The position numbers were made by a program, and so were the translations under genes. A stretch of DNA of 64,000 bases from Abditibacteriota bacterium (GTDB taxonomy: Bacteria > Armatimonadota > UBA5829): NCBI GenBank assembly GCA_942493375.1, contig OW818698.1, positions 6,082,139 through 6,146,138 of the forward strand, given 5' to 3'. The notes beneath the pieces are model-generated. The model searched no databases. It saw only the letters and a list, made by a program, of their open reading frames with translations, and was not told the DNA's origin. Below are positions 23,625 to 64,000 of this stretch, one piece after another (the first letter of the stretch is position 1; every line of letters begins with the position of its first letter).

Positions 23625-23633
23625 CTACCTTGT

Positions 23634-33029: not shown

Positions 33030-33043
33030 GGTAAGAGACTGGT

Positions 33044-45017: not shown

Positions 45018-45032
45018 TGAATAGAGAGGTAA

Positions 45033-46529: not shown

Positions 46530-46800
46530 AAAACAAGGAACCGCGAATCACGCAAAAGCACGCGAAAGAGTATGAACGCCAATCCCTTTTCGCGCATTTA
46601 GCGCATTTAGCGGTTCCTAAAAAAGAAAGCTTCTGACAAGAACCGCGAATCACACGAAAGCACGCGAAAGAGATTCATGCTTATCCCTTTTCGCGTATTT
46701 AGCGCATTTAGCGGTTCCTAAAAAAGAAAGCCTCTAGCAAGAACCGCGAATCACGCGAAAGCACACGAAAGAGATTCATGCTTATCGCTTTTCGCGGTTC
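46530..46800. repeat. Tandem direct repeat, about 100-bp unit and about 2.7 copies. Each unit holds an internal inverted repeat.
   Basis: Unit: AAGAACCGCGAATCACGCGAAAGCACGCGAAAGAG.ATTCATGCTTATCCCTTTTCGCG.ATTTAGCGCATTTAGCGGTTCCTAAAAAAGAAAGC.TCT.ACAAG. GGAACCGC pairs with GCGGTTCC. The last copy is truncated and overlaps the 3' end of the GxxExxY gene. Confidence 0.8.
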
Positions 46801-47228
46801 TTAAACTGATTGGTGTTTTTAGTATTTGCATATCGTCTGGTATCGAATGCTTTTCCACCAAAGTTTATTAGAATGCCTAACGGTAACTCAGTTGCTTTCA
46901 AAGAGTTCAGTATTTGAGATTCGTCAATCTCTGTGATAGTTTTGATTGCCTTTATCTCGATAATTATCTTGTCGTAGCAGAGAAAATCGGTGATATATTC
47001 CTTGCTCAGCAATCGGTCTTTATAAGCTACGGTAATTCTCTTTTGCGGAATAAAGGGTATGTGTCTATCGGAGAATTCGATTTCTAGTGCTTCCTGGTAT
47101 ATCGCTTCTAGAAAACCGCAACCTAAGTGATAGTACACTTCCATAGCAGCACCAACTATTTGGTAGGCTTCTTCTTTGTAAATAATATCATCATACTTAC
47201 TTTGATTGTTGATAAGCACTGGTGACAC
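46782..47228 (-). CDS. GxxExxY family protein (PD-(D/E)XK nuclease superfamily)
   Basis: EEAYQIVGAAMEVYYHLGCGFLEAIYQEAL contains the signature GxxExxY. 148 aa. Confidence 0.75.
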   Translation of the reverse strand: MSPVLINNQSKYDDIIYKEEAYQIVGAAMEVYYHLGCGFLEAIYQEALEIEFSDRHIPFIPQKRITVAYKDRLLSKEYITDFLCYDKIIIEIKAIKTITEIDESQILNSLKATELPLGILINFGGKAFDTRRYANTKNTNQFKNREKR

Positions 47229-47323: not shown

Positions 47324-48151
47324 CTATGGTCGATAAATCAGCAGCACCAGCACTGCGAAGGCGAAGCGGTAGATGGCGAAGGCGGCCAGGGATCTTTTTT
47401 GGACGAAGTTCATCAGGAACCTGATTGCCAGATAACCGGATATTGCAGCTGTAATAAGCCCTACTGCAAATACTGCTAACTCACTGCTTGTTATTCCGAC
47501 TTTCAGGAAGTTTTTGTAGAACTGAAGCAATGCAGCTGCAACGATTATGGGCATAGACATCAGGAAACTGAATCTGGCTGCAGCTTCTCTTTCGAGGTTA
47601 AGGAAGAGGCCAGCGGTTATGGTTGCTCCTGAGCGTGATACACCCGGAAACAGCGCCATTGCCTGGGCAAGACCAATGATGATGTAGTCCTTGTAGTTCA
47701 TCTGCCCCATCGGTCTGTTTCTACGTCCCAGTTTCTCCCCAAGCAGCATCACCAATCCCACAATTACCATTGGTATTATCACGAAATATGGGTTGCGCAG
47801 GGTCTCTTCAATATAATCATTCCACTTATATCCAACCAGTGCAGCCGGTACACATGCAACGATTATTGGTATCATCTGTCTGCCATGAGAGCCTCCGGCT
47901 TCCATCTCTATGTAGTCTTTTCGTTTTACTACATGGGAATAGAACTGGGTGATTATCTTGACCCAGTCTCTCCAGAAGAATGCAATCAGGGCGATTACGG
48001 TTCCCAGGTGTAGAGCTACATCAAATGTCAGCCCCATATCTTTCCAGCCAAGCAGTTTAGGTATTATTATCAAGTGCCCTGAACTACTTACAGGTATAAA
48101 CTCAGTAAGACCTTGAATCAGACCCAGGATAATGGCTTCAATGAAATGCAA
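47324..48151 (-). CDS. uppP: Undecaprenyl-diphosphate phosphatase
   Basis: MHFIEAIILGLIQGLTEFIPVSSSGHLII is the canonical UppP/BacA N-terminus. Eight TM helices. 275 aa. Confidence 0.85.
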   Translation of the reverse strand: MHFIEAIILGLIQGLTEFIPVSSSGHLIIIPKLLGWKDMGLTFDVALHLGTVIALIAFFWRDWVKIITQFYSHVVKRKDYIEMEAGGSHGRQMIPIIVACVPAALVGYKWNDYIEETLRNPYFVIIPMVIVGLVMLLGEKLGRRNRPMGQMNYKDYIIIGLAQAMALFPGVSRSGATITAGLFLNLEREAAARFSFLMSMPIIVAAALLQFYKNFLKVGITSSELAVFAVGLITAAISGYLAIRFLMNFVQKRSLAAFAIYRFAFAVLVLLIYRP

Positions 48152-49349
48152 TTAACGTTCTCCCATTGGATTGACTTGTTTACTCCGGCGAGGGAGTATG
48201 TAGTAGTAGCGTATTATGTCTCTGATTATTGCTGCAACCGGCGCTGCCAGAAACATACCGATCAGCCCGAAGAACTCGGCTCCTATTAGCAGTACGATAA
48301 TAACTACCGCAGGTCTCAAGTGAAGCCTGTCCCCAATCAACTTTGGCATTACAAACTTACTCTCAGCAAAGTGCATAACTGTTACGAATATAAGCAGGAT
48401 CAGGGCGATATCTACTCTGTCAGTCTTTAGGAGTCCCACAAGCACTATGGGAATACCGCTTACTACAGGACCGATAACTGGTATCGCTCTGGTTATTGCT
48501 GCAAACAATGCTAATACCAGAACATATGGCATATCCAGAACAGACAGGAAAAGCCCTGTCAGTATTCCAGCGATAGCGCACAGTATTAGCTGTCCAATAA
48601 CGTAGCTCTGAAGGATTTGTCCCAGTCTGCGGCCTATTCTCAATCCATCACGCAGTCTGCGGTGTGGTAAGGCACCGTAAATCTCGCTGGTGATTGATCT
48701 GTAGTCTAATAAGAAATAGAAAGCCAGCACCGGTATGAGAAAGAGCTCCATAACAATACCGACCGAGGAAGTTACAAATTTGAGTGTTCTCTGGACATAT
48801 CCGCCTGCTATTTCAACCAGATTGGTCGTGTCCAGACCACTTATCCAACCCCTGACAGTCTCTGGCACTGCGTTGTAATACCATGCACCGGCTCTTTCCA
48901 CCAGACTCCCCGTTTTCGTTACATAAACGCTAAAGTTTTTGCTGAACTGCTGGATTTCCTCGGTGATTGGAGCCAGCATCGCATTTTGTACCGACTACTA
49001 GAATGGCTATAAAACTAAAGAAGACTATGATTGTTGCAAGTAAGCGTCTGTCGCTATATTTCAGAGACATTCTGCTGCACAGCTGTTTCCAGCGTGGTTT
49101 ATCGCTCAGCCGCTCATCATCACATCTTTTTGGTACCAACAGGTGCATAGAGAGCCATTCGACAGCTGGTAGCATTATATATGTCAGAATGACTGCCACC
49201 ATGACTGATACCAGGACAAGTTGAATACGCCAGATGACATAAATCGCCAACAGAGCAGCTAGCAATCTGACAATTATTACCCAGAATGGGGATGAGACTC
49301 TTATCCAGAAAGGATTTTGGTTATCGTTAGTTTGTTGCATATTCCTCAA
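48152..49349 (-). pseudogene. AI-2E family transporter (PerM/YhhT-like) split by a +1/-1 frameshift near 48930-48980
   Basis: The N-terminal 139-aa ORF (48930..49349) carries the AI-2E start (VILTYIMLPAVEWLSMHLL). The C-terminal 275-aa ORF (48152..48979), in another frame, carries the rest (VIGPVVSGIPIVLVGL...FVMPKLIGDRLHLRP...FLAAPVAAIIRDIIRY). The two overlap by 50 nt. Either a real pseudogene or a sequencing error. Confidence 0.55.
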
Positions 49350-50479
49350 ATGCCGAATCTAGTTGAGATAGCCTGCCAGGTTTTCTCAGCTGAAGAGCCG
49401 TCTCCATATGGATTGCTGACCTGCGACATCGAGTCATAAGCAGCCCGGTCTCTGAGTAGTAAGTTTGCATTGGTTACAATGTTTTCAGTCAGTGTGCCTA
49501 TCAGTTTTGCGTTGCCGGCTTCTACGCCTTCCGGTCTTTCTGTTGTCTCTCTAAGCACTAGAACAGGTCTGCCCAGAGATGGCGCTTCTTCCTGCACTCC
49601 ACCGGAATCTGTCAGCACAAGGTATGAATGCTTAATCAAATGCACAAATGGCACATAGTCAGGTGGTTCTATCAGAGTGATTCTCTGCTTGTTCTCTAAT
49701 ATAGGATATACGGTTTCCCTTACAATAGGGTTCCTGTGGACAGGGAAAAGCACATGAACTTCCGGGTTTTCTTCAACTATCTGCAGGACTGCTTTGCAGA
49801 TATCTTCCATTCGCTCTCCCCAGTTTTCCCGTCTGTGAGCTGTTACCAGTATCATCTTGTCGGATTTAATGGCTTCGCAGATCCTGGGGTCTTCAAACTT
49901 ATATTCCTGCTGTGATATGCTAAGCAGAGCGTCGATAACAGTGTTACCCGTAACGAAAATATCTGCTTCTCTAACACCTTCCCTTAGAAGGTTAGCTTTG
50001 GCTGTTGGTGTAGGAGCAAAGTGCAGATCAGCTATTACAGCTGACAACCTACGGTTCATTTCTTCCGGGAACGGATCATACTTGTTGTCTGTTCTTAAGC
50101 CGGCTTCTACATGTCCGAAAGGCACTTTATTGTAAAAGGAAGCCAGGCTCGCGACGAATGTGGATGATGTATCTCCCTGCGCTAGGACCAGGTTAGGGGA
50201 TAGTTGGGAGATCAGTTCATCAAGTCCTTCGAGCACTCTTACAGTTAACTGCGTGAGTGTCTGTTTAGCTGCCATTACGTGCAGATCATAGTTCGGGTGC
50301 AGGTCAAAAGCTCTCAAAACCTGCTCCAGCATCTCCCGGTGTTGACCCGTAACCACGAGGGTCAGGTCAACTTTGTCTGATCTCTTTTTTAGATCGTTGA
50401 CAATTGGAGCCATCTTCACCGTATCCGGCCTGGTGCCGCATATGGCCATGATCTTTAACTTATGGGCACGATTTGGCAT
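49346..50479 (-). CDS. wecB: UDP-N-acetylglucosamine 2-epimerase (non-hydrolysing)
   Basis: KIMAICGTRPDTVKMAPIV...HVEAGLRT...DSGGVQEEAPSLGRPVLVLRETTERPE are the hallmark WecB/MnaA motifs. Confidence 0.85.
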   Translation of the reverse strand: MPNRAHKLKIMAICGTRPDTVKMAPIVNDLKKRSDKVDLTLVVTGQHREMLEQVLRAFDLHPNYDLHVMAAKQTLTQLTVRVLEGLDELISQLSPNLVLAQGDTSSTFVASLASFYNKVPFGHVEAGLRTDNKYDPFPEEMNRRLSAVIADLHFAPTPTAKANLLREGVREADIFVTGNTVIDALLSISQQEYKFEDPRICEAIKSDKMILVTAHRRENWGERMEDICKAVLQIVEENPEVHVLFPVHRNPIVRETVYPILENKQRITLIEPPDYVPFVHLIKHSYLVLTDSGGVQEEAPSLGRPVLVLRETTERPEGVEAGNAKLIGTLTENIVTNANLLLRDRAAYDSMSQVSNPYGDGSSAEKTWQAISTRFGI

Positions 50480-50518
50480 TTGTGTTGAACCCCTTATTTT
50501 ATCTTAGAGTATGGCACC

Positions 50519-50626
50519 GGCCCAATTCCCCCTTTGAAGGGGGGTAGGGAGGATGTGATAAAAACTGTAGTATCTATCATCAATCCGCACATCCCCCTAC
50601 CCCCTTCAAAGGGGGAATTGGGGTGG
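50519..50626. repeat. Long palindrome (about 37-bp arms and about 30-nt loop, family 4) between wecB and the wecA-like gene
   Basis: CCCAATTCCCCCTTTGAAGGGGGGTAGGGAGGATGTG...CACATCCCCCTACCCCCTTCAAAGGGGGAATTGGG. Shorter relatives (CCCAATTCCCCC...) occur at 30795..30825 and 43903..43935. Confidence 0.75.
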
Positions 50627-50649
50627 ATCGTGTCAGAACAGAGTTGCAG

Positions 50650-51642
50650 TTATTTCACAGTAACAAAAAGCAGGTAAGCCAGTGCACATAATAGTGCTGT
50701 AAGGCCATATACCGTCCACACAACCTGCTGGGTGCTGTAGCCTTTATCCATCAGTCTGTGATGGAGATGGGTGCGGTCGGCTTCACTTATCTTTTTACCG
50801 GAAGCCAGCCTGCGGATTACCACTAATGCAGTATCTCCAAGTGGAACTCCCAGAGCAATAATCGGTGCTCCTATGGCTACGAGGGTCGTGATCTTGAATG
50901 CACCAACAAGAGATATCGCTGCCAGCATAAACCCAAGGAACTGTGCTCCTACAGTTCCCATGAATATTTTGGCGGGTGGATAGTTGAACCTTAAAAATCC
51001 CAGACAAGCGCCAACCAGAGCAGCGGACATAATGGCCGCAAGCTTTACACTGTTCATCATTTCCGGAGATTTAGGGGTTGCTGCCAGTGCCATCAATAGC
51101 AAGGTTGCAGAGATGATCAGCGATATTCCCGCTGCCAGTCCATCAACTCCATCCATGCAGTCAACAGCCTTTGTTACCATTAGTATCCATATTACAGTAA
51201 ATGGTATACCCAGATAACCCAAGGGTATAGTCTGTCCACCACCGCGGAATGGATAGGTGATTGCGCTGACCGTTACTCCAAACATATACAGGATGCATCC
51301 AGCGATTACTATAGTAAGTGCCTGCACCCATCCAGGAAGCTCGTAGCGGTCGTCAAGCATACCAACTATAGCCACGAACGATGCACTCAACAGGACTCCA
51401 CCAGCTGTTCGATCGAAGAACAGCTTATTGTCCAGTGCTAAAGCCACAACCAGCGTCACCGCAAAAGCCATATACATAGCAGCCCCACCCAACAGTGGGG
51501 TAGGGCGCTTATGTGTTCTGCGTCCGCCTGGTTTCGCTACAACTCCGTATCGCATTGCAAATCTGCGTGCAACCGGTGTCAATAGATACGAAACCAATAG
51601 GCTCATTACTACGGCTATTAATGCTGCGGTACCTGTACTCAT
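50650..51642 (-). CDS. Glycosyltransferase family 4 polyprenyl-phosphate HexNAc-1-phosphate transferase (WecA/TagO/MraY-like)
   Basis: About 10 TM helices. LGGAAMYMAFAVTL... and VDGLAAGISLI... are MraY/WecA-family cytoplasmic-loop motifs. It is adjacent to wecB and uppP. Confidence 0.75.
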   Translation of the reverse strand: MSTGTAALIAVVMSLLVSYLLTPVARRFAMRYGVVAKPGGRRTHKRPTPLLGGAAMYMAFAVTLVVALALDNKLFFDRTAGGVLLSASFVAIVGMLDDRYELPGWVQALTIVIAGCILYMFGVTVSAITYPFRGGGQTIPLGYLGIPFTVIWILMVTKAVDCMDGVDGLAAGISLIISATLLLMALAATPKSPEMMNSVKLAAIMSAALVGACLGFLRFNYPPAKIFMGTVGAQFLGFMLAAISLVGAFKITTLVAIGAPIIALGVPLGDTALVVIRRLASGKKISEADRTHLHHRLMDKGYSTQQVVWTVYGLTALLCALAYLLFVTVK

Positions 51643-52932
51643 TTAATCATATACCGGGAATTTATCAGTAAGGTTCCTAACCTCTGTTGCTACTATCTGC
51701 CTGACTTGCGTGTCTTCTGCAGAGTCTCCGGTATGTTTGAGGCATCGGACGATCAGATCAGCGATGATATCCATCTCAGCTTCCTTCATACCACGGGTCG
51801 TCACGCAGGGAGTACCAAGTCTCAGTCCGCTGGTAACCATAGGCTTTTCCTTGTCAAACGGGATCATATTTCTATTTGCAACTATCCCTATATCGTCAAG
51901 GACAACCTGAGCTACTTTGCCGTTGATACCGAGTGATGTCATATCTACAAGCATGAGGTGGTTCTCGGTACCTCCACTGACTAACCGAAGCCCTCTGGAG
52001 CTCAGACCATCTGCTAATGCTTTAGCATTTTTCCTGATCTGCTGCTGATAGTCTTTGAAACTCGGCTGCATTGCCTCTTTCAGACAGACTGCCTTCGCGG
52101 CAATAATATGTTCTAATGGACCACCCTGCAGACCAGGGAATACTGCTTTGTCTATTGCCTTGGCTATATCCTGTTTGCAAAGGATAATACCTGATCTTGG
52201 CCCCCGGAGTGTCTTATGGGTTGTAAAAGTTACCGCATGGCAGTGAGGGACGGGAGAGGGATGTTCTCCGCCTGCAACCAGACCTGCAATGTGGGCAATA
52301 TCCGCCATCAAAATTGCACCGACCTTGTCAGCAATCTTCCTGAAGCGTTCGAAGTCTATTATCATCGGATAGACTGTAGCTCCGCAGACGATCACTTTCG
52401 GTCTGCACTCTTCAGCTTGCTTCTCTATCGCATCGTAGTCAAGTATCTCTTTTTCCGGGGTCACACCGTAGTGGACCGGATTATATAGAATACCGGAGAA
52501 GTTAACAGGGCTTCCGTGGGTCAAGTGTCCGCCGTGAGCAAGGTCCATCGCCATGAAAGTATCGCCCGGTTTCATGAATGCATGGTATACAGCCATGTTG
52601 GCCTGAGAACCAGCGTGGGGCTGAACATTTGCATGATCAGCACCAAACAGCTCTTTGGCGCGCTCTATGGCTAGGGTTTCTACCTGGTCAACGAATTCAC
52701 ATCCGCCGTAATATCTCTTGCCGGGATAACCTTCGGCATATTTATTAGTAAGGGCAGAACCCTGGGCTTCCATAACTGCTTTACTGGCGTAGTTTTCGGA
52801 AGCGATCAGTAGAATCTTTGAGTTCTGTCGCTTGATATCTGATTGGATGATCCCGGCTACTTCCGGGTCTATCTGACTTAGTGGGGCGTTCATTAATGAA
52901 CGCAAATCTGATTGGGTCTGATCTGCAGACAC
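51643..52932 (-). CDS. glyA: Serine hydroxymethyltransferase
   Basis: [27 protein letters not shown] and the [15 protein letters not shown]-lysine motif. GTG start at 52932 with GGAGG at 10-nt spacing, 3 nt after the rpiB stop. The ORF-track ATG at 52956 would overlap rpiB. Confidence 0.85.
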
Positions 52933-52934
52933 TG

Positions 52935-53399
52935 TTATACTTCCTCCCGCGCGCAATCAAGCGCGTTTATCTTATCAACACGAGTCTCGTGTCGAGTTCC
53001 TGCTTGAAAAGGGGTTTGCAGAAATGCTTCTACTATTTCCAGGGCAAGGCCAAGTCCGACCACACGGGAACCAAAACCTATAATGTTGGCATTGTTGTGT
53101 GCTCTGCTCATCCGGGCTGAGTAAGGTTCGGAGACGCAGGCAGCGCGGACACCTTTGATTTTATTGGCTGATATCGTTATGCCGACTCCAGTGCCGCAAA
53201 CCAGAATGCCAAGGTCAAACTCTCCCGCAGCAACAGCTCTGCCTACTATGGCCCCGAAATCAGGATAATCTACGGAATCCGGAGTATGGGTGCCCATATC
53301 AGTGACTTCGTAAGAGATATTGCTGGAAATAGCGTCGAAAATATTGTTTTTGAGATCGAAACCAGCATGGTCCGACCCTATAGCGATGCGGATTTTCAC
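52935..53399 (-). CDS. rpiB: Ribose-5-phosphate isomerase B
   Basis: [17 protein letters not shown]...CGTGVGISI are RpiB/LacAB signatures. 154 aa. Confidence 0.85.
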
Positions 53400-53450
53400 G
53401 GTTTATATACTCCTTATTACCGAGGATATTATAGCCTTGGGTGGCTCCGG

Positions 53451-53479
53451 TTGTAAAGCTGGCCCGGTTCTGGTACAAT
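53451..53479 (+). promoter_or_regulatory. Near-consensus sigma-70-type promoter upstream of 53521
   Basis: TTGTAA, a 17-nt spacer, then TACAAT, located 40 nt upstream of the ATG. Confidence 0.4.
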
Positions 53480-53520
53480 CACTATGTACCTAACCGTGGT
53501 TTTCATTCTTCGTTACCCGG

Positions 53521-54261
53521 ATGGGTCGGAGGTATATATTGAAAGAGCAGTTGAAAACTGTCTATAAAATTCACTGCATCGATAAAAGAGCAGCTGTGCT
53601 TAAGGCGCAACTGGCTGAGATTACTGCGTCTGATGAGTTCAAAAGGAAGATGGAATCTGCGGATCGTGCCGTTGCTTCTACTACCGCGGACTTAATAAAA
53701 AAAGACGCCGATATCAAGGATGCTGAACTGAGGCTGAAGTCTTTAGAGACAAAGCAGGCAGACTATGAAAAGCGCTATTATGACGGTAGTGTGAAAAACC
53801 CAAAAGAGTTGACCGCGATTGAAAAAGAAATCCAGCTGTTGAAGCAGCAGAGGTCAAAGATCGATGGGGAATTACTGGCTCTTTATGAGACTGCTACTGC
53901 AATGAGGGAGAAGCTTGCAAAAGCATCTAATGCCTCTCAAGTCTGGCGTCAGAGATATGATGTTGCTTACAAAAAGGAAGGCTCAGCCCGCCATAAACTG
54001 GAAAAAGAGCTGGCATCATTGATGACAGCCCGTAAGTCCAGTGTGGTGAAGGTTACCAACAGGGAGCTGATCTCCAGGTATGAAGCCATATCCAAGCGAG
54101 TAGGGGACACCGGCGCGGCTCTTGTGGTGGATAACCGCTGTGAAGCTTGCCATGTTGCGGTTACACATTATATAACCAGGGCTCTTGAGTCCGGGACTAT
54201 ATATGAGACGTGTGAAAGTTGCGGCAGAATCCTGTTGAGTTCCAAGGAATGCTCAGAGTAA
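53521..54261 (+). CDS. COG1579 / DUF164-type coiled-coil protein with a C-terminal C4 zinc ribbon
   Basis: Long coiled-coil (heptad-rich with K/E/L) ending in CEACHVAV...CESCGRIL. 246 aa. Confidence 0.6.
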
Positions 54262-55685
54262 CCATACACACCGACGGCGCGTGCAAGGGAAATCCCGGGG
54301 ACGCTGGTGTCGGTGTGGTTATCAAGGATGAGACCGGCACAATAATCAGAGAGATAGCCGAATATATTGGAAAGACTACCAATAATGAGGCGGAATACAT
54401 AGCTTTATTGGTTGGTTTGAGGGAAGCTGTCCTGCTTGAAGCTTCGGAGGTTCTGGTCAAAACAGACTCCGAACTTATGGCCAGGCAGCTTAATGGTCAG
54501 TATCAGGTCAAATCTCCCAAACTCATCAACCTTTATCAGGAAGCAGTGGACGTCCTGAGAGGTTTTAAGAAAGCCAGGATAGTCCACGTCATGCGTGAAG
54601 AAAACTCCAGGGCGGATGCGCTGGCCAACGAAGGCGTCAAGAAAAAGAACAAGCCAAAACCAGCAGCAACAGCCAAAGAGCCAAAACCAGCAACTGCCCC
54701 CAAACCAATCGAACCAAAACCCAGGGTTGAAGCTGTAATTGCCGAAACTCCGAAGGCTGTTCTCAAAGAGCAGGCTGCTCCAACAATTTCTGCAATAACT
54801 GAAACCCCAACGTTTCCTACTGCACGCCTCAGTTCACCGTCAGGTTCAGAGCTTATCCTGGTCAATGGGGACTGTATTGCAGGTATGCGTTCACTTATAG
54901 ATGATGGCAGTATCGATGTCGTTGTTACTTCCCCTCCATACAATCTTGGAATAAGTTACAGTGAATATGATGATACTTCCTCCAGAGAAGAATATTTGCA
55001 GTGGATGGACGAATGGGCAATAGAAGTCAAAAGAGTCCTGGACGCTAAAGGGTCATTCTTCTTGAACGTAGGTTCCAAACCCACAGACCCGTATGTGCCG
55101 TTCGATCTGCTTGGAGTCATGCGCAAACACTTTGCATTGCAGAACACTATCTACTGGGTGAAGTCCATCGCTATTCTTAAATCTGAGGTTGGGAGCTATC
55201 CGGGCATCATGTCCGATGTCGTTGTAGGGCACTACAAGCCAATCAACAGCAAACGGTTCGTAAACGATTGTGCGGAGTTCATATTCCATTTTACTCACAA
55301 TAATGACGTAGAACTGGACCGGAAAGCTATTGGGGTCCCTTACCAGGACAAAACAAACATCAAGAGATGGGGTTCCGGGGAATCAGCAGTCCACTGCAGG
55401 GGCAACACCTGGTTTATCCCTTATGATACAATCAACAGCAGCGAAAAAGACCGCCCACATCCGGCATCTTTCCCAATAGATCTGCCAAGAAGATGCATCA
55501 CGCTGCACGGCAAAGAAAAAACCGGCAGAGTCCTGGACCCATTCCTGGGAATAGGCACCTCAGCCCTCGCCTGCGCTGAACTTGGAATAGACTTCATGGG
55601 CTTCGAAATGGCCGAAGACTACTTCGCAATATCAGAAGACCGAGTAAAATCCGCTTGCAAACCGGTTCCAACGCTGGACCTGTAG
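54249..55685 (+). CDS. RNase HI-like domain fused via a Lys/Pro-rich linker to a beta-class N4-cytosine/N6-adenine DNA methyltransferase
   Basis: RNase H: [14 protein letters not shown]...[10 protein letters not shown]...KTDSELM...NSRADALA (DEDD). Linker [28 protein letters not shown]. MTase: motif IV SPPY ([10 protein letters not shown]) lies N-terminal to motif I ([17 protein letters not shown]). The start overlaps the stop of the upstream gene. Confidence 0.75.
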
Positions 55686-55739
55686 AAACGTCCCGCAATT
55701 CCCCCGTGGCGAACAACCACAATCTTGGAGGGGGTTAGG

Positions 55740-55950
55740 CGGATTGATTCCTTCCCAACTCCGTTAGCCCTGAGTAGCCGTAGGCGTATCGAAGGGCGGC
55801 TGCGGAGAGCCATTCCCTTTAGTTCCTTCGGTTGTCGAGTGCAACGGAACAGCCGAAGTCGGACTAATACCACGTATGGTTACATGCGATCTGATGCCAT
55901 ATCTTCGGTAGTTCCACTTCGTTCGACTACCGAAGGAACAAAGCAGAGCA
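55740..55950. repeat. Modular hairpin repeat cluster (family 6, units A, B, C), copy 1
   Basis: Unit A arm TAGCCCTGAGTAGCCGTAGGCGTATCGAAGGGCGG. Unit B CTTCGGTTGTCGAGTGCAACGGAACAGCCGAAGTCGG. Unit C ATGCCATATCTTCGGTAGTTCCACTTCGTTCGACTACCGAAGGAAC. The same units recur at 56420-56510, 56788-56812, 58368-58425, 61995-62360 and 63706-63866. Confidence 0.8.
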
Positions 55951-55995
55951 AATCCTGAGAATGCAAAGAAACAGTTTGTTGAGGAACTTCAGTGG

Positions 55996-56397
55996 ATGTG
56001 CAAGAGCGGCTATAATGTCTATCTACAGCACCATGCATTCAAGCAGATTGGAAGTAACGGATGGCAGTCAGTTTCAGCAGAAATTGGAGAATTGAATTGG
56101 TTTATCTCGCAGGTGGACCGTCCTAATATAAAGATGGCTCTAGATTTAGGGCATATGGACCCTGCAAAAGACAACCCTGAAAAAATGGCAGTTGATTTGA
56201 AAGATAAGCTGGGAATGGTTCTCCTGAGCAGTTGTAAAACAGATTCCTATAACCAAAGCTACGATTCCCATTCTCCTGCAGCTCAACATTGGAAAAAGAT
56301 GCCCTGGCTTAAGAACACCGGAGTCCCCATCATCTTTGACGCTGACTATAAAAGCACATCAGAAGAATATGAGGACCTGGAACTGCTGGGGAATTGA
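55996..56397 (+). pseudogene. C-terminal fragment of a xylose-isomerase-like TIM-barrel (sugar phosphate isomerase/epimerase) gene. The 5' part is replaced by a family-6 repeat.
   Basis: IKMALDLGHMD and NTGVPIIFD resemble the beta-7/beta-8 metal-binding strands of AP-endonuclease-2/xylose-isomerase-fold proteins. Only about 133 aa are present versus about 280 expected. The frame runs upstream into the repeat. Confidence 0.4.
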
Positions 56398-56530
56398 TGA
56401 GATTTATATAAATGAGCAATGGAACTGCCGAAGTCGGGTTTCGACATCGTATGTTTACAAGTGATCTGAGACCCCATCTTTGGCAGTTTGGCTACCGAAG
56501 GAACGCAGAGACGTGAGGGATATATAAAGT

Positions 56531-56788
56531 ATGCGATTACGCCAGGAATTATTGAGTTTGTTGCAGGAGGTAGTAAGAGAACAATCTCCTGATCTACTTC
56601 CGGCAATCGAGCAGTTGGCTCATGATCGTCTTCCGTCCCGAGTGGAAGCAGATTTGCTGATAGACATCATCTTCTCGGAAGTTGCACGTACTGGCTTTTT
56701 TGAAACAGATGAATCAATCAAAAGAGGACTTATGCTGGAGGAAATAGGTGACTTCCTTTGTGATTCGGATTACCAAGATTCGAACTAG
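56531..56788 (+). CDS. Small hypothetical acidic protein (85 aa), repeat-flanked
   Basis: ORF bounded by family-6 repeat units on both sides. No recognisable family. Confidence 0.3.
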   Translation: MRLRQELLSLLQEVVREQSPDLLPAIEQLAHDRLPSRVEADLLIDIIFSEVARTGFFETDESIKRGLMLEEIGDFLCDSDYQDSN

Positions 56789-56923
56789 TTTTGCTCCTTC
56801 GGTTGTCGGGTACCGCACAATGAACTGTTACATGAATTAGTAATATACTATATTAAGGATTACAATAGACAGCACAGATGCTGCAGATTATTATATGCCA
56901 TTATCAGAAAGGAATGTGAAATC

Positions 56924-58111
56924 ATGAGTATAACTCCTGAGGAAAACAAACCAAACCCCGAATGCAATTGTCCGAAAGATAAACCCGAGATTTTAAGTAT
57001 TATACAACAAGCGGCTTTTGCAACTGATACGATTGCCGATCCCTTTGCAGGCAGTGAACCACCGCGTATTTCTAATCGGATTTTAAATTATCGCCGTATC
57101 CAGCCTTGGGAGAACTACTTCCTCGCTTCAGCCATTTGTTCGGTGGCAATTGCGAAAGGAGCAGATGAAGAAGCTTTAAAAACTATCGGGCGAGAAAAGG
57201 TCAATAACGGGTTTCATTTTTTCTCTGCCATCACAGGCGATATGTTCACAGTGCTTTATGCAACCGATAAGCCCTCTGACAGCGGTATTACCAATTATTT
57301 CTTTATGCCCCAGGTTGTAAAGAAAGCATATGCAGCATTCGGTTATGACTGCATTTATCTGTCGAATGCACAGATTCGAAAAGATTTCGGAGCAGCGATG
57401 AATGCCATCAAAGCTTCTGTGGACAAAGGCATCCCGGTGCTGGCATGGGGTATGGGTAATGTGACAATGGGAAATGGCAATCACTGTGATCTGATGCCGG
57501 AAGGGTGCCTGATCGGCGGGTATGATGAAAACGACCTGCTGTATGTCAATCTTTATCCGGGACCGGACCGAGTGACTGTGGACGACGACGGATACACCGC
57601 CATTATCAATGGACTTGATAACACATATGGACTGTTCTTTGTAGGTGATCCAATACAACAGCCGGATTTGGGTAGAATCTATCGAATGGCGATTGATAGT
57701 GTTCCCTACTTCATGGCATTACCGCCAGCCGACGGATATGTGTTTGGGCAGACAGCCTTTGAGAAATGGGCGGACACACTTCTTGATGAAAGCCGATTTG
57801 CGGATAAGACCGATGAGGAATTGGGCGGCATCTGTTGGGATTTACACTGTTCACCCTACTGTAACGTATCTACCAGTGCAGCGGAAATATTCGTCCGGGC
57901 TGGCGCAGAGTTATACAATATAGAACCTGCAAAAGAACTGCTGCCGTTATACGGAAGATTCACACAGCTGCGACAGGAAATATGGACTCTGCACGGCGAT
58001 TTCTTCCCACCGATGGACAAATTCAGAACACGAGAATTCCGCAGCAATATTGCCGAAATACTGAGGCAAATTGGTGGAGTTTGCAGCGAAATACTTGAAG
58101 TATTTAGCTAA
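56924..58111 (+). CDS. Hypothetical 395-aa protein, possibly of the BtrH-N/DUF4872-like peptidase fold. Very tentative.
   Basis: N-terminal CNCPKD Cys pair. Intact ORF between repeat blocks. Confidence 0.3.
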   Translation: MSITPEENKPNPECNCPKDKPEILSIIQQAAFATDTIADPFAGSEPPRISNRILNYRRIQPWENYFLASAICSVAIAKGADEEALKTIGREKVNNGFHFFSAITGDMFTVLYATDKPSDSGITNYFFMPQVVKKAYAAFGYDCIYLSNAQIRKDFGAAMNAIKASVDKGIPVLAWGMGNVTMGNGNHCDLMPEGCLIGGYDENDLLYVNLYPGPDRVTVDDDGYTAIINGLDNTYGLFFVGDPIQQPDLGRIYRMAIDSVPYFMALPPADGYVFGQTAFEKWADTLLDESRFADKTDEELGGICWDLHCSPYCNVSTSAAEIFVRAGAELYNIEPAKELLPLYGRFTQLRQEIWTLHGDFFPPMDKFRTREFRSNIAEILRQIGGVCSEILEVFS

Positions 58112-58367
58112 TCTGAGCTCATTTTGGTGTTTCGGCAGTTTAATTAAAAGGTGAGGAAGGGTGAGGGTAAAGAGTGAGTGGACTGCCACCTTAAATTAGC
58201 ATGTTCGGAAGCAGGGACAAAAGCTGAGGCAATCTTGAATGATTCGCCTTAGCGCAGACGGCGGTTTCGGGACTTCCGGGTTGGGTATAGGTTAGTGATT
58301 ACTCCGGTAGATAGTTATCCAACCCTCAAGTTCCCGAAACACCAACAGTGTAACTACAAATGATCCG

Positions 58368-58425
58368 ACGCCATATCTTCGGCAGTTCCACTTCGTTCGA
58401 CTACCGAAGAAACTCGAACCCCAAA
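58368..58425. repeat. Family-6 unit C hairpin copy
   Basis: TGATCCGACGCCATATCTTCGGCAGTTCCACTTCGTTCGACTACCGAAGAAAC. Confidence 0.75.
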
Positions 58426-58494
58426 AAGATTCTGGGATTCTGTTACGGATGCGATTGCAAATCGCATCCGAGCGTGTGGTAGCCCATTATTGTT

Positions 58495-61400
58495 TCATTT
58501 CACTTGTGCCATGTTCCATACTCCACAGGACCCACCTCCCTGGCCTGTATAGCCCGGATGGATGCTCAGGGTATCAGAACTAGTAGCATCGAATGTAGCT
58601 CCGGTAGCCTTGATGTGTTCGGCATTGGCATCGAATAATCGTCCAAACTGCATTTCGCGATGGAACACTGGAAGCCTGCTATTCTTAATCAAATCGGCGA
58701 CGAGACTGCCGTCCGCTCTAACCACCTGAAGCGAATGGATTACCGTACTATCAAATGCCGGATTGGAGTTGCAGGTGACGCTCAAGATAATCCGCCCAGG
58801 CATTTTTGCACCTAACGGCAGAGCTAAAGGAGATGAAACCTCGAACGCATTGGCCAGATTATGTCTACCAATAAGCCTCAGCGATTTGCCGGTGTTGTCT
58901 TCCGAATAGAAGCTGAGGGTGGTACCATCGGTATTGCCTTTGTTATACGGTTCCATGTTTGCCGACCATGTTAGGAACAACGAGTCCCCGGGCTTTCCGA
59001 TTGCTGCTTCTTTAAGAGAAGACGGCTGAGTCTTCGGATTAAATTCGGCCTCAATTATATCCAGCCAGTATTGCAGCTTTGCGTGGCGTTTTTTGAGTTC
59101 GAGTTCCATCGTTTTGGATTTCGCAGAAGGAACTATATAGAAGAGTCCTGCCGTTTTTAAATTGAGTTCGAGTGTGACCTGGGCCGATGTGTGATTACCG
59201 AGTTTCTTTCCACTCATAAAATCATATATCACAAATGGTGGCTTTACAGTAGTGGTGAACTGTGCGGTACTGTGCGAGCCAGGCATATTGTATGTATAGG
59301 GCACATCATTAGGCGCAAATGGCCCTTTGTAATCCTCAAGGCTTTTGCGGCTGAAGAGTGCTGCTACCTCACCGTTGGCGGTTTTGTATCGCTGCAGATA
59401 ACAGTTGCTCTCTTTGCCATCTGCAGTAATTGCTCTGTCTTTGAACACTTTCCACAAAACATATTTCTCAATACCCAGAGTTCCATCGTTGCCGGGACTA
59501 AAATGCAGATAGTATATTTTGCTGCCGTTTTTCAATTCAACCACGGAGGCCAGCGGTGTATTGCCACTGCTCACCAACGGTCTTGCCGAAGCTGATATCT
59601 GATATAACTGTCCTGAATATGAGAAACCTATCTTCTCGCCGGTGCTGCTGACAACTGCATCACCCTTAATATCTTGCATTGCTCCTGAGCTAACAGACCC
59701 CACAAAGTCTGCAAAGAAATCGGGGCTGTTGATTGAAGTTCCATCCCACCATATATCAGTATAGTTGGTGGCATCCATCTTGTTACCAACTGATGATCCA
59801 TACATAACGATGCTCATGGCATTCTTCTTAGCAGCTGACACCAGGTCCGCGGCAAAGTATTGAGGCAGCGCGGAAGCCTCGCACAATACCACACGTGCTT
59901 TATCCAGGGCCTTGAGATCATTGCAAGATCGATAATCCATAGCTATCCAGGGATAACTTGTTTTATCCAGAGCTTTTTCAAGCGTGTTCTTGTTGTTATA
60001 GGAAATCCAAAATGGCTGACTGCGACCAACCAGAATCGCTTTGTCATATCCCGACAGATGTTCGGGTGAGTCAGAGGTGGAATCGTTATATCCAAATGCT
60101 TTAGAAAGGAAGTCCACATAGCGTCGGAATTCATATTCGTTAGATTGTGAATTAGTATTACCGCAGATCCAGTCATTTTGCATGCTGTCATAATGACCCG
60201 CAGCATTCAGAGCATACCAGAAAATGTATGCAAATTCGGGAGCCAGATAAGCAGGTCCACCACCGCCAAGTCCCGACTCTCCGATCAAACGATGATGTTT
60301 CCCATATTTGGCTGCCATTTGCCGCCAAACAGGCAAGCTCTTGTAAGAACGTGCAATATTGCCGGGATGATAAAAATGGGTTTCATCTATCAGTGTTTTA
60401 ACATTTGATAAGCGCATCAGACCTAAATAGTCATTGCCGTTTTGCCAGTTGTCGCCATTCGGCATAATGGTAAGACTTGTTCCCGATGCCTGTCCTGCTG
60501 AGCCAATTGTATCGACCAGCTTCAGATATCCATAATGGACCAGCATAAGATGAATAAAGAAGTTTTTCGAACTAAATGTGGCTCCGGTGCGTTTCTTGAG
60601 TGCATCATGCTGTTCGTTTGTGGAAAATCCGTTCAGACACGGTAGATATTGAGACCATGATGATAGTCCCAGCTCATGTGGATTAAGCGCTACACCAGCA
60701 GCATCTTTCACATACTCGAGAAACGTCATTGTTTTAGGACTCTTAGTGCCTAGTTTTCCTATTTTAAGGCCGTTGTCTAACCCCTGCAAGGCATCGCGAT
60801 AAGCTTTTACATCTGCTTCACTGTAGCCATACTGCCCCCAGTAAGGCCATACGCAGTCTATAAACTGAAATTCGGGGATACCGCCTAAACCAACTCTCCT
60901 TATAGCTTCGGAAAACCCGTCAGCAATGGCTGGGTTGCACCAATCCATCTCATGGAAAGCGCTGGAACCTCTGGGGTCTGTATCACTGGATTTACCCGTC
61001 CAGTCCACTGCATGGGCTTGTTTTTCACTCACATAAGGTTCCAAATCAAATATACCGCCTACCTGGTATACGAACGGAATGTTGTGTTTGGACAGCCATT
61101 CCTTCTCAGCTACAAGTGCAGGCAGATAGCTGTTGCAATTCACGCCAAGGTTGGGTAATATGCCTTTCAGAGTGAGTATCTGATTGCGGCCTTTGGGCGA
61201 CATCAGCTCTGTAGTGGATGTGCCGATATACACGACGTGTTGTCCACTCATAGGAGTTGTCTTAGGGATCACCGGCGGCAGAGCATAACCTCTAAAACTC
61301 CAATCGATGTCATATAGACTCGTAGACTTTCCGGATGAGTCGACAAACTCAGCAGATTCCAGCGCAACTGTAATCGAAGAAGCAGCACCAGAGAATTCAA

Positions 61401-61911
61401 ATCGAATAGCATCCCCATAGGAAGATTTTGCGCCATTCCATCTGGCATTTGTTATAACAGTATCGATTACATGGCCGACAGTAAAATCGTTGGGCGCAAA
61501 AGTTTTAGAGAATGATGCAAGGCCACTCTCGCCGGTATAGGCTGGGTCATAATGCTCAAGAGTATTGTAAAGTACAGATATAGCCAGAGTTGGCGAACCG
61601 GTCATTTCAACGACCCTAAAACGCACTTTGGTCTGTTTTATGTCCGCAATTACACCAGTTGGAATCGCGATAAAACCGGATTGCTCCGGAGTGCTGGGAT
61701 TGTCGGACCATTTGATTTGCAATATCTTTGCAGAACCAGGTGTCTGATCAATCAGAATAGCCTGTGGTACATCACCCCCGAGTATACCTGTAGTATTTTT
61801 AAGCGCAGAGCTCAAAATGGAGTCACTCATCTGATTTATTCTGTCAGCCTGAGATATCCCCTGCGATAGAAAAGTTAGCAGGCAAGCTAGAACTGTGATG
61901 TGCTTGATCAT
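58495..61911 (-). CDS. Large secreted protein of unknown function (about 1139 aa)
   Basis: Preferred start MIKHITVLACLLTFLSQGISQA, which has a signal peptide and AAGGA at 7-nt spacing. Beta-rich. No family recognisable by eye. Confidence 0.5.
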   Translation of the reverse strand: MIKHITVLACLLTFLSQGISQADRINQMSDSILSSALKNTTGILGGDVPQAILIDQTPGSAKILQIKWSDNPSTPEQSGFIAIPTGVIADIKQTKVRFRVVEMTGSPTLAISVLYNTLEHYDPAYTGESGLASFSKTFAPNDFTVGHVIDTVITNARWNGAKSSYGDAIRFEFSGAASSITVALESAEFVDSSGKSTSLYDIDWSFRGYALPPVIPKTTPMSGQHVVYIGTSTTELMSPKGRNQILTLKGILPNLGVNCNSYLPALVAEKEWLSKHNIPFVYQVGGIFDLEPYVSEKQAHAVDWTGKSSDTDPRGSSAFHEMDWCNPAIADGFSEAIRRVGLGGIPEFQFIDCVWPYWGQYGYSEADVKAYRDALQGLDNGLKIGKLGTKSPKTMTFLEYVKDAAGVALNPHELGLSSWSQYLPCLNGFSTNEQHDALKKRTGATFSSKNFFIHLMLVHYGYLKLVDTIGSAGQASGTSLTIMPNGDNWQNGNDYLGLMRLSNVKTLIDETHFYHPGNIARSYKSLPVWRQMAAKYGKHHRLIGESGLGGGGPAYLAPEFAYIFWYALNAAGHYDSMQNDWICGNTNSQSNEYEFRRYVDFLSKAFGYNDSTSDSPEHLSGYDKAILVGRSQPFWISYNNKNTLEKALDKTSYPWIAMDYRSCNDLKALDKARVVLCEASALPQYFAADLVSAAKKNAMSIVMYGSSVGNKMDATNYTDIWWDGTSINSPDFFADFVGSVSSGAMQDIKGDAVVSSTGEKIGFSYSGQLYQISASARPLVSSGNTPLASVVELKNGSKIYYLHFSPGNDGTLGIEKYVLWKVFKDRAITADGKESNCYLQRYKTANGEVAALFSRKSLEDYKGPFAPNDVPYTYNMPGSHSTAQFTTTVKPPFVIYDFMSGKKLGNHTSAQVTLELNLKTAGLFYIVPSAKSKTMELELKKRHAKLQYWLDIIEAEFNPKTQPSSLKEAAIGKPGDSLFLTWSANMEPYNKGNTDGTTLSFYSEDNTGKSLRLIGRHNLANAFEVSSPLALPLGAKMPGRIILSVTCNSNPAFDSTVIHSLQVVRADGSLVADLIKNSRLPVFHREMQFGRLFDANAEHIKATGATFDATSSDTLSIHPGYTGQGGGSCGVWNMAQVK

Positions 61912-61994
61912 TCCGGAGTCCTTCTTTCGATGTTGTCCAATTTCGAGCATTATTCCCCAAGCTCTGCTTTCATCCTGCAGTAGGGACGAAAATA

Positions 61995-62360
61995 CCCGTT
62001 AGCCCTGAGTAGCCGCAGGCGTATCGAAGGGCGGCTGCGGAGAGACCAACCCGGTAGGTCGTGTACAACCGACCGCCCTTCGATACGCTGCGCTACTCAG
62101 GGCTAGCGGGATTATTTTGTTACTTCGGTTGTCGAGTGCAACGGAACAGCCGAAGTCGGGTTTGTAATCAGTGTGATTGCAAATGATCTGACACCCCATC
62201 GTAGGCAGTTCGACTACCAAAGGAATCCTGTTTTAGTTACTTCGGTTGTCGAGTGCAACGGAACAGCCGAAGTCGGACTAATACCACGTATGGTTGAATG
62301 TGATACGACGCCGTATCTTCGGCAGTTCCACTTCGTTCGACTACCGAAGGAACGCCGCTT
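61995..62360. repeat. Family-6 modular repeat cluster (A palindrome plus 2xB plus 2xC), the largest copy
   Basis: A near-perfect 35-bp-arm palindrome (TAGCCCTGAGTAGCCGCAGGCGTATCGAAGGGCGG...CCGCCCTTCGATACGCTGCGCTACTCAGGGCTA), then two B units and two C units. Confidence 0.8.
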
Positions 62361-62395
62361 TCCCTTCCTGAAGCCTAAAGCCTGAAGTCTGAAGC

Positions 62396-63628
62396 CTATT
62401 CTCTGTCAGTGAGAGTGCCAAAATTTCTCAGGCGTGGAAAGGCCAGTGACCAGATACCCACAACCAATAGTGTGCCGATTCCGCCGACAACTACTGAGAG
62501 TTTGGGGGTCATATACTGGGCTGTAAGTCCGGATTCCAAACCGCCGATTTCGTTCGACGAACCTATAAATACATAATTCACGGCAGACACACGCCCAAGC
62601 ATGTCGTCCGGTGTGAGCATAAGCATCAGAGTCCTGCGCACTACGACACTTATGTTATCAAGTGCGCCGGTGAGGAAGAGCATTATCCATGACAGAACAA
62701 AATTGTGTGAAAGGCCAAATACTATGGTTGCCAGGCCAAAACCGGCAACCGCAGTAAACATTGCACGACCAGCATTCCGCATCGGTGGTAAATGGGCTAA
62801 CAAAACAGCCACAATAAATGCGCCTGCTGCAGGTGCTATGCGCAGCAGTCCAAGACCGTGTGCACCGACATGCAGGATGTCTTTTGCAAAAACAGGGAGC
62901 AGATAGACCGCACCGCCAAGCAATACAGCGAAGAGATCGAGCGATATTATACCAAGCAGCAGTTTTGTTTTCCATACAAAACGCGCTCCAGCCAATAAAT
63001 TCTGCATCGACATTGAGCCTACAGATACACTGGATTTTATCGGAATTGTGAGAAGTAGCACGATATAAATCATTCCAAATACTGCAGTCGTAATATATAC
63101 AGCTGTTATACTCCAGGTTATGATTACTGCACCTAAAGCAGGACCTGCTACCGCAGCTATTTGAAATAAACTAGACTGCCACTTTACAGCATTTTCTAAT
63201 ATTTCCGTCGGAACCAATAATGGAAAGATAGACTGAGACGAAGGGCGCTGTAAAGTAGCAAATGAGGCGTCCATAAAAAGGAGTATATACATCAGACGAA
63301 TGGAGCCATGTCTTGCGGAGACATATGCCAGTCCGAGGGAACAGAGTGCTACACCCATTACACAGACTGCAGTAACAGTTCTCCTGCTATACCTGTCTGC
63401 CAGGTAACCAGCAGGCAGGCTCAAAATGAGCATTGGAATAGCTTGAATTCCGCCGACCAGTCCCAGATCCAATGGACGACCAGTGCGGGTATATATATCC
63501 CATCCGATAGCAAGTCCCTGCGCACCTAAGCCAATCTGTAATAGCAGATTGCCAAACATATATCGCATGAGGGTTGGTATACGAAAAGCAGCGTATGGGT
63601 TGTTTGTTGCAGGAATTTTATCGGACAT
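62396..63628 (-). CDS. MFS transporter
   Basis: Twelve predicted TM helices. The MFS motif-A-like sequence GYLADRYSRR lies after TM2. 410 aa. Confidence 0.75.
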   Translation of the reverse strand: MSDKIPATNNPYAAFRIPTLMRYMFGNLLLQIGLGAQGLAIGWDIYTRTGRPLDLGLVGGIQAIPMLILSLPAGYLADRYSRRTVTAVCVMGVALCSLGLAYVSARHGSIRLMYILLFMDASFATLQRPSSQSIFPLLVPTEILENAVKWQSSLFQIAAVAGPALGAVIITWSITAVYITTAVFGMIYIVLLLTIPIKSSVSVGSMSMQNLLAGARFVWKTKLLLGIISLDLFAVLLGGAVYLLPVFAKDILHVGAHGLGLLRIAPAAGAFIVAVLLAHLPPMRNAGRAMFTAVAGFGLATIVFGLSHNFVLSWIMLFLTGALDNISVVVRRTLMLMLTPDDMLGRVSAVNYVFIGSSNEIGGLESGLTAQYMTPKLSVVVGGIGTLLVVGIWSLAFPRLRNFGTLTDRE

Positions 63629-63705
63629 ATGAGCTTACTACCGCAATATTTTCCCATACACATAGTTACATCGTCAAATGAAAGTGTTCACTAGTAACCG
63701 TTTAG

Positions 63706-63866
63706 TTGCTTCGGCAGTTCCACTTCGTTCGACTGCCGAAGGAACGAAAATGCCCGTTAGCCCTGAGTAGCCGCAGGCGTATCGAAGGGCGACTGCGGAG
63801 AGCCCACCCGGTAGGTCATGCACAACCGACCGCCCTTCGATACGCTGCGCTACTCAGGGCTAGCGG
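63706..63866. repeat. Family-6 repeat (C unit plus A palindrome), followed by a T8 run
   Basis: TTGCTTCGGCAGTTCCACTTCGTTCGACTGCCGAAGGAACG then the A palindrome, then ATGTTTTTTTTGG. Looks like a bidirectional terminator. Confidence 0.75.
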
Positions 63867-63891
63867 ATGTTTTTTTTGGTTCCGGCTGTGC

Positions 63892-64000
63892 CTACTTAGG
63901 CAAACTACGGAACAGAATGATATTGCCATCTATGTCGTAGAAACGAAACGATTTTGCACCCCAAGGCCATAGTTGAGGCTCTGTTGTACCTTTGATATTG
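63892..64000 (-). CDS. Glyoxalase/VOC family protein, C-terminal end only. The gene continues beyond the window.
   Basis: The minus-strand translation ends ...NIKGTTEPQLWPWGAKSFRFYDIDGNIILFRSLPK*, which matches the VOC C-terminus (WG.k.f.f.DPDGN.i.f). Confidence 0.5.
   Translation of the reverse strand, partial: NIKGTTEPQLWPWGAKSFRFYDIDGNIILFRSLPK

Follow-up and report, generated by a model that had tools for sequence, protein, structure and literature searches.

What kind of element occupies the gaps between the genes at the right end of a 64,000-nucleotide (nt) stretch of DNA from an Abditibacteriota bacterium (contig OW818698.1; the whole stretch is called the window below)? An earlier note on this DNA had described a family of modular hairpin repeats there. 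Reading of positions 55,500–64,000 together with repeat searches recovered such repeats at all six sites that it had listed and, as it had also held, no intergenic gap is free of them: each of the six gaps between 55.7 and 63.9 kb carries at least a module fragment. We read the family as lineage-specific, non-coding palindromic repeats of the kind known as repetitive extragenic palindromic (REP) sequences and bacterial interspersed mosaic elements (BIMEs), similar to REP doublets forming hairpins (REPINs), and the locus as a hot spot of rearrangement; we assign this reading a probability of roughly 60%. The modules form a mosaic with BIME-like architecture, are dispersed in the lineage and turn over fast at orthologous gaps. 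The family itself, its six or more module types, the design with a hairpin inside a linker, the strict co-orientation and a link to hairpins of other phyla appear undescribed; the kind of element is known.

Hairpin modules and their arrangement

The note had named three modules, A, B and C. Exact and IUPAC searches gave four matches for the pattern of the C hairpin and three for the left arm of A, where 100 dinucleotide shuffles led us to expect 0. Every copy of A, B and C in the window lies on the + strand, and a sensitive blastn search with 7-nt words found none of them in positions 1–55,700. A is a genuine palindrome; its arms, given as 35 bp in the note, measure 38–40 nt with two bulged bases and are partly self-palindromic, and each A element pairs a short-type with a long-type arm. 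The hairpin B-left (GTTCCTTCGGTTGTCGAGTGCAACGGAACAGCCGAAG) is to about 80% the reverse complement of C (CTTCGGYAGTTCCACTTCGTTCGACTRCCGAAGGAAC), so that ‘B’ and ‘C’ are a single hairpin of 37 nt (one or two mismatches) that occurs in both orientations. The BC unit is a nested palindrome of 122 nt, built of B-left, a spacer of 44 nt and C, and its terminal inverted repeats are the 37-nt arms (78–81% complementary). The window holds three such units (U1, U2 and U3) and a fourth, U4, which is truncated at its 5′ end. A second nested palindrome, found at 61,975–62,160 and 63,701–63,920, consists of C, the 116-nt hairpin A and B-left. B-spacer-C alternates with C-A-B in arrays of about 250 nt. In related strains the alternation of the two palindromes takes the form A-BC-A, where GAAAATA and GATTATTTAG serve as linkers. 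At least six module types can be told apart, and all copies lie between open reading frames (ORFs), none inside a gene. It is through its hairpins of 37–38 nt, its inverted pairs with linkers, their tandem alternation and the purely intergenic position that the family matches the definition of BIMEs (PMC3333891, PMC2817692).

The features are listed below; contigs of related bacteria carry L numbers. Four of the modules (E, F, the heptamer tail and a degenerate B-left) had been missed by the earlier note, and the site that it gave as 56788–56812 exists as a mere 23-nt piece of B-left.

55,725–55,760, + strand: E module, a small G5/C5 hairpin leader before A (blastn module map).
55,761–55,811, + strand: truncated A with its left arm and the start of the loop, right arm missing (repeat and blastn searches).
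55,818–55,939, + strand: BC unit U1, with B-left at 55,822–55,858, the 44-nt spacer and C at 55,903–55,939 (repeats; folding z −5.6).
55,942–56,397, + strand: 3′ remnant, 151 codons, of a gene for a protein of 972 amino acids (aa); the ORF from the ATG at 55,996 encodes 133 aa (alignment to relatives).
56,416–56,504, + strand: U4, a BC unit without the outer B-left and with a short-type right arm (repeats, blastn; ortholog at L029 17,360–17,434).
56,494–56,879, + strand: 386-nt segment absent from the relatives, with an 85-aa ORF (56,531–56,788) and the B-left piece (56,789–56,811); L029 is continuous at 17,432–17,434.
58,263–58,345, + strand: F hairpin module (blastn module map; folding z −3.3).
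58,355–58,413, + strand: half a BC unit, namely the right part of the spacer and a C hairpin at 58,377–58,409 (repeats; no counterpart at this position in the relatives).
58,416–58,470, − strand: two small terminator-like hairpins, not repeat modules, directly 3′ of the 1151-aa gene (terminator scan, 58,440–58,416).
61,975–61,994, + strand: degenerate right arm of C and GAAAATA linker before A (aligned to 63,733–63,752).
61,995–62,110, + strand: complete A with 38-nt arms, two bulges and a 38-nt loop (−48.5 kcal/mol, z −9.7; 98% identical copy in relatives).
62,115–62,236, + strand: BC unit U2, short-type, its right arm without CACTTCGT (repeats, blastn; the relatives have no U2 at the same gap).
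62,232–62,353, + strand: BC unit U3, 93% identical to U1 (repeats; folding z −5.3).
62,350–62,395, + strand: tail of about four tandem heptamers, CCTGAAG/CCTAAAG (blastn module map).
63,701–63,749, + strand: solo C hairpin with a B-type leader, TTTAGTTG (repeats; folding z −5.6).
63,753–63,877, + strand: complete A (63,753–63,866), followed by a T8 run at 63,870–63,877 (repeats; folding z −10.6).
About 63,876–63,920, + strand: degenerate B-left completing the C-A-B nested palindrome (repeat family and shared ACGGAACAG; weak assignment).

The z scores refer to folding as single-stranded DNA; they are weaker for the degenerate units U2 (−2.3) and U4 (−1.8). The E module is also present in L001, L006 and L012; L029 has three copies of it, and an inverted pair of E modules (CCCAATTCCCCCTTTGAAGGGGGGTAGGG) lies at window 50,521–50,623, a position kept in the relatives at an identity of just 72%. 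F has three co-oriented copies in relatives (L029 18,814–18,895 and 21,060–21,142; L026 13,475–13,555), and the heptamer tail follows BC units at three gaps of L029 and is present in L001, L005 and L012 as well. The truncated A meets B-left at a TTAG microhomology, and its ortholog in L001 (4,196–4,309) is a complete A. The left junction of the 386-nt segment lies inside the right arm of U4, directly behind GGCAGTTYGGCT; the 85-aa ORF of this segment matched no Pfam or NCBIfam family. The spurious ORFs that the note ascribed to the repeats are present, and a protein search with repeat-encoded peptides as bait gave no match.

Copies are not confined to this locus, a possibility that the note had left open. 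Contigs of the same lineage with 46–48% GC (L001, L005, L006, L012 and L022) have complete A elements at no fewer than seven other sites, among them a tandem triplet in L005. A pattern for either A arm found 23 stretches in JGI metagenomes and none in GTDB genomes and viral contigs; the exact C hairpin pattern was found in none of these three collections. Contigs of another lineage with 54–62% GC carry a variant of A. In this variant an imperfect palindrome some 200 nt long has the same 30-nt arm at its apex, and a GGCC-loop-GGCC mini-hairpin in the partner arm. Throughout the A-type elements the apex core is best conserved and the outer ends vary. The genes beside the metagenome copies of A are unrelated, housekeeping ones (for example mreB, dnaE and aroA), and A-like copies sit in divergent, tandem and convergent gaps alike. 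BLAST against plasmids and phages gave no match for A, BC, the first gap or the GC-rich A-like element. That the family had not been recognised as a described one is borne out for its sequence: there was no Rfam match at gathering score in the window and 20 loci, nor at E up to 5 in window 55,600–64,000, and full-text literature searches with the literal repeat sequences returned nothing relevant.

Gene blocks and junctions in three strains

The window was compared with relatives of 86–95% nt identity, which were retrieved through cluster members. Behind a methylase gene the order of genes and modules differs between three strain types (numbers give the lengths of the proteins in aa; the 1151-aa ORF of the window has the 1138-aa gene as its ortholog in the relatives; MFS, major facilitator superfamily):

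L029/L026 type: 313 (−), 333 (−), 972 (+), 395 (+), 194, 424, 1061 (−), 81 + PIN, 1138 (−), MFS (−), GH106 (−).
L001 type: E-A-D-C′-tail, then directly the 972-aa gene.
Window: E, A-left, U1, last 151 codons of the 972-aa gene, U4, 85-aa ORF, 395, F + C, 1151 (−), A-U2-U3-tail, MFS (−), C-A-B′.

What sets the strains apart is whole blocks, namely the 313-aa and 333-aa genes, the pair 194 + 424, the 1061-aa gene, the 81-aa gene with its PIN toxin, and the 85-aa ORF. The gaps themselves differ too. Between the 1151-aa and MFS genes the window has A-U2-U3-tail where the relatives have A-BC-A, and the sixth gap holds C-A-B′ in the window versus a different, CCTGAG-type hairpin in the relatives. 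Six or seven of the nine synteny breakpoints lie within a module or no more than 5 nt from one, several of them with microhomology. The junctions fall at varied positions of the modules (loop of A, end of C, right arm of U4, end of B-left, edge of F), often at 4–13 nt of microhomology, which argues against one fixed crossover site. Across the three strains the repeats mark the ends of gene-block loss, replacement and truncation.

The A, BC, F and tail modules all point the same way, regardless of gene direction; in the relatives this amounts to about 20 modules in a region of roughly 25 kb, and the sole exception in the mapped loci is one weak E-type match in L029. The repeat-rich region begins exactly where synteny ends, after the methylase gene. 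This gene (window 54,219–55,685) encodes a fusion of RNase H (RVT_3) and an N6/N4 DNA methylase and is kept in all relatives at the exact left edge of the variable region; together with it, genes for a CT398-like protein and RpiB lie upstream of the array. Over window 47,324–63,628 the nt identity to L026/L029 is lowest for the AI-2E transporter (74%) and highest for the 1151-aa gene (95%). The block with the 1151-aa gene reaches 95%, versus 74–91% for the flanking housekeeping genes; an accessory block more alike than its housekeeping flank hints at recombination between strains. L026 13,730–14,418 and L027 14,713–15,093 carry the PIN toxin with its 81-aa partner and a DDE_Tnp_1_6 transposase fragment, none of which is present in the window.

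The note had seen a truncated TIM-barrel isomerase gene beside the copy at 55.7 kb and suspected that a miniature inverted-repeat transposable element (MITE) had inserted there. The truncation holds, and an intact full-length ortholog of 972 aa does exist in the relatives; identity and cause are different. Window 55,942–56,397 corresponds to residues 822–972 of the 972-aa protein (89% aa identity, no gaps; 88.8% nt identity to L029 16,882–17,434), and distant homologues of 955–966 aa align to the remnant at their C-termini. The Pfam match of the remnant to a TIM barrel is weak (E 0.0028), and for the full-length protein neither Pfam nor PDB gave a match. The identity as a short TIM-barrel isomerase was hence rejected: the ORF belongs to the C-terminal 151 codons of the larger gene. 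The break point, which is the left end of the event, lies 5 nt past the C hairpin of U1 at a GACTAC..AGGAAC microhomology; there CGACTACCGAAGGAAC resembles the gene's own CAGACTACAGGAAAC. The 5′ 2.5 kb of the gene are gone outright and not interrupted. To judge by the alignments, this missing part and the two upstream genes that one relative still has were lost by a deletion or replacement that ended at a repeat on one side and shows no target-site duplication, and insertion of a MITE was rejected as the cause of the truncation. For annotation this is a warning: the repeats give rise to ORFs that are conserved and yet false, and what looks like a 133-aa ‘TIM-barrel’ gene is the dead remnant of a 3′ end.

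How the repeats may spread, and the alternatives

The basic unit is the imperfect 37-nt hairpin in its two orientations, its inverted pairs being joined alternately by the 44-nt spacer and the 116-nt A. Under the REP/BIME-like reading, spread and rearrangement would take place at the DNA level; likely routes are hairpins in single-stranded intermediates, slippage, and recombination of copies that point the same way, perhaps helped by an enzyme acting in trans, such as a Y1 transposase of the REP-associated tyrosine transposase (RAYT) type. Once spread, the copies would decay. The common orientation could stem from strand-specific insertion at replication forks or from local duplication. REPs have a conserved GTAG on the 5′ side of the hairpin foot. 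GTAG is invariant in the A arms, in 25 of 25 aligned copies that had been collected with a GTAG-containing pattern, and a GCC-NNN-GGC mini-hairpin follows it in arms of the long type.

Several points weigh against this reading. In place of a conserved GTAG the B/C hairpin has GGYAG, itself not conserved. Neither the 64-kb window nor the DNA up to 3.5 kb from the 23 related loci yielded a gene for a RAYT or another Y1 transposase. RAYT genes, usually flanked by the repeats, are as a rule single-copy, so that their local absence says little. A single orientation irrespective of gene direction is not reported in published descriptions of REP/BIME elements. REP/BIME elements have a high copy number across the genome; here copies were counted in the window and in metagenome contigs. 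Finally, breakpoints are necessarily intergenic, being tolerated only there, and the repeats fill most of the intergenic DNA; the coincidence of the two is therefore weak evidence that repeats cause the rearrangements.

A role at the RNA level, in which the units are selected terminators, insulators, mRNA-stabilising 3′ hairpins or small RNAs and only secondarily repetitive, seems unlikely to us. The hairpins are very stable and the units intergenic, often at the 3′ ends of genes, and such roles have been reported for REP/BIME elements (PMC3333891). The T8 run that the earlier note saw after the last copy is present; T-rich runs stand behind both full A copies of the window on the + strand, as does TTTT on the − strand, and a terminator role may apply to these two copies only. 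Of the repeat modules, the terminator scan flagged just the base of the two full A copies, and its total of 8 compares with a shuffle expectation of 7.5. Modules other than A have no T runs, the A copies of the relatives mostly lack them, and stems of 38 bp are far longer than those of intrinsic terminators. Nor do the silence of Rfam at a permissive threshold, the indifference of metagenome A-like copies to gap type and the changing module content of the same gap in close strains fit selected RNAs. In 11 BC units 74.6% of cells are paired (31–42% in slid-partner controls) and 25% unpaired, and the covariation score of 0.078 is below the shuffle mean of 0.093. Pairing that is kept while covariation does not exceed shuffles points to inherited, decaying palindromy and not to a selected RNA fold. 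The pair swaps seen (T-A to C-G in the C stem, G-C to A-T in a mini-hairpin) are anecdotal and possibly single events each; RNAalifold found almost no consensus structure in the 11 units because many copies are truncated. Two other RNA candidates were rejected: ARAGORN found no tRNA origin, and CUGAGUAG, inspected by eye as a hammerhead ribozyme, lacks the essential G8, with Rfam silent.

Two further explanations invoke dedicated recombination or transposition. The co-oriented BC, F and tail modules could be att-like sites at which a site-specific recombinase inserts and excises blocks, as in integrons or clusters of attC sites lacking integron integrases (CALINs) but with other sites. The shared orientation across about 25 kb of mixed gene directions, the module at the end of nearly every one- or two-gene block, the whole-block differences among three strains, the start of the module-rich region at the end of synteny behind the methylase and the 95% identity of the 1151-aa block would all follow, and we still regard this as quite improbable. 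No unit fits attC R″ (RYYYAAC) and R′ (GTTRRRY) boxes or L-box geometry, the best candidate, GTGCAAC...GTTCCAC, conflicting with the actual helix. Neither the scanned ORFs of the window nor the called genes of the relatives' loci included an integrase or recombinase gene. Junctions vary in position and show microhomology instead of a fixed crossover, there are gene-free tandem arrays (three A in L005; A-BC-A), and housekeeping genes surround the A copies of other contigs. The classical MITE, derived from an insertion sequence with a DDE transposase and truncating one gene by insertion with target-site duplications, is largely refuted and we consider it very improbable. It draws on the 122-nt BC unit with 37-nt terminal inverted repeats, which has the size of a MITE, and on the DDE_Tnp_1_6 fragment in the variable region of one relative. 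No consistent direct repeat flanks any of 16 tested elements, and no insertion sequence with the same terminal ends was seen in the window or in the relatives' loci. The strain comparisons yielded no clean filled and empty sites, every difference being a replacement or deletion with microhomology; in one pair (a hairpin at L029 1,282–1,365 versus window 45,017–45,033) the 3′ end of the upstream gene differs as well. A uniform orientation argues against cut-and-paste, and ends bound by a transposase would be the conserved part, the opposite of what the A elements show. The truncated gene, as described above, lost its 5′ part and was not interrupted. No protein family, RAYT and integrase included, was enriched among 94 ORFs flanking the metagenome copies. 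Inverted repeats of 38 bp as in Tn3 were rejected by sequence.

Related hairpins, known systems and meaning

The A arms (CCCTGAG-TAGCGCAGCGTAT-CGAAGGG) share a YCTGAR-X-YGAAGR frame and a CGCAG core with two other hairpins of the window, at 41,689–41,765 and 23,630–23,693, which are perfect and have arms of 31 nt and 28 nt (TGTCATCCTGAGGAACGAAGGATC... and TTGTCATTCTGAACGCAGTGAAGAATCT). Hairpins with this frame also occur on plasmids of Spirosoma, Phocaeicola and Calothrix. Judged by its letters, the ‘TGTCATCCTGAG..CGAAGGATGACA’ hairpin motif, A arms included, crosses phyla; we know of no formal description of these hairpins. In A the centre is expanded, the arms are unequal and the loop is long, which sets it apart from them, and A itself has no plasmid or phage match. 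A half copy lies at about 23,700–23,715, and a 67-aa YwbE/DUF2196 ORF (23,421–23,624) ends 5 nt before the hairpin at 23,630.

Further small repeats were seen in the window and in related contigs. Three tandem hairpin units of about 100 nt, with arms GGAACCGCGAATCACGC.../...GCGCATTTAGCGGTTCC, lie within window 46,530–47,228, next to a strain-specific gene for a 148-aa GxxExxY PD-(D/E)XK nuclease (46,782–47,228, − strand); the counterpart in the relatives is about 200 nt with different hairpins (L029 2,884–3,083). In the GC-rich metagenome contig L017 (11,843–12,483) a small GIY-YIG ORF (11,978–12,343) lies between two direct A-like hairpins, a single case that brings to mind RAYT genes with REPs on either side. 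Another hairpin (CGTAGGGGAGACCCTCTGCGGTCTCC) is present in three copies between DUF4190/DUF1559 genes at 32,867–33,030, and a related piece lies at L001 4,083–4,105. An inverted-repeat cluster (ATGTTTTTGAATCGCGAATTTCGCGGA) is located at 40,330–40,478. Tandem heptamer runs adjoin hairpins in unrelated contigs: CCTGAAG/CCTAAAG at window 62,362–62,392, and CTCTCGA and GTCGATG at about L015 2,060–2,125 and L010 9,370–9,400. The heptamer of the window resembles the GCCGAAG stem of the B/C hairpin.

It is a long shot that the modules are the sites of an undescribed system of gene-block shuffling, a cassette array without attC sites of the integron type, or that CCTGAG..CGAAGG hairpins are moved by small stand-alone nuclease genes next to them, of which the GIY-YIG ORF of L017 and the GxxExxY gene at 46.5–47.2 kb are the two examples seen. 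If this were true, it would be a new mechanism of gene turnover at the strain level, maybe across phyla.

The REP/BIME-like reading rests on likeness to described systems. With hairpins of 30–40 nt, inverted pairs and two kinds of linker, the family resembles the REP/BIME elements of E. coli (BIME-2 and atypical BIMEs; units y, z1 and z2; linkers L, S, s, l and r) and the REPINs of Pseudomonas; two arm types are always paired, and the short and long arms of A recall y and z of E. coli. Alternating tandem arrays, an exclusively intergenic location, strain-variable unit numbers and a place in strain-specific regions are common to both (PMC3333891, PMC2817692, PMC1187871, PMC3116915). In E. coli the number and type of BIME units at a locus vary between strains (PMC3333891), and BIMEs are enriched in strain-specific loops (PMC1187871). 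The family differs in that it has no sequence similarity to these elements, that its linker A is itself a 116-nt hairpin, that six or more module types exist, that the copies are regionally co-oriented without a RAYT found near the loci, and that the host belongs to a different lineage, apparently PVC-like in gene content to judge by DUF1559 proteins.

Two other systems invite comparison. Pneumococcal BOX elements consist of boxA, boxB and boxC modules in the fixed order A-Bn-C. BOX and the present family are both modular, non-coding, hairpin-forming intergenic repeats with variable module numbers; their sequences and module logic are unrelated, as the present arrays alternate two linkers with inverted copies of a single hairpin. 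Like attC arrays or CALINs, the locus has co-oriented imperfect palindromes of about 60–140 nt between variable blocks, one of which is a toxin-antitoxin pair in relatives. Unlike them it has no AAC/GTT R boxes or L boxes, no integrase, varying junctions, gene-free arrays, and blocks of up to 3.5 kb in which genes run either way. An integrase gene (IntI) and attI at the head of the array are not required for a CALIN.

To our knowledge, the biology of REP/BIME elements and REPINs comes almost entirely from Proteobacteria. Under the reading that we favour, the locus would be a richly modular equivalent of these elements in a very different lineage with large genomes. One of its modules ties it to a hairpin motif shared across phyla, for which we found no description, and the evidence from three strains shows that the repeats mark the points at which gene blocks are lost, replaced or truncated.

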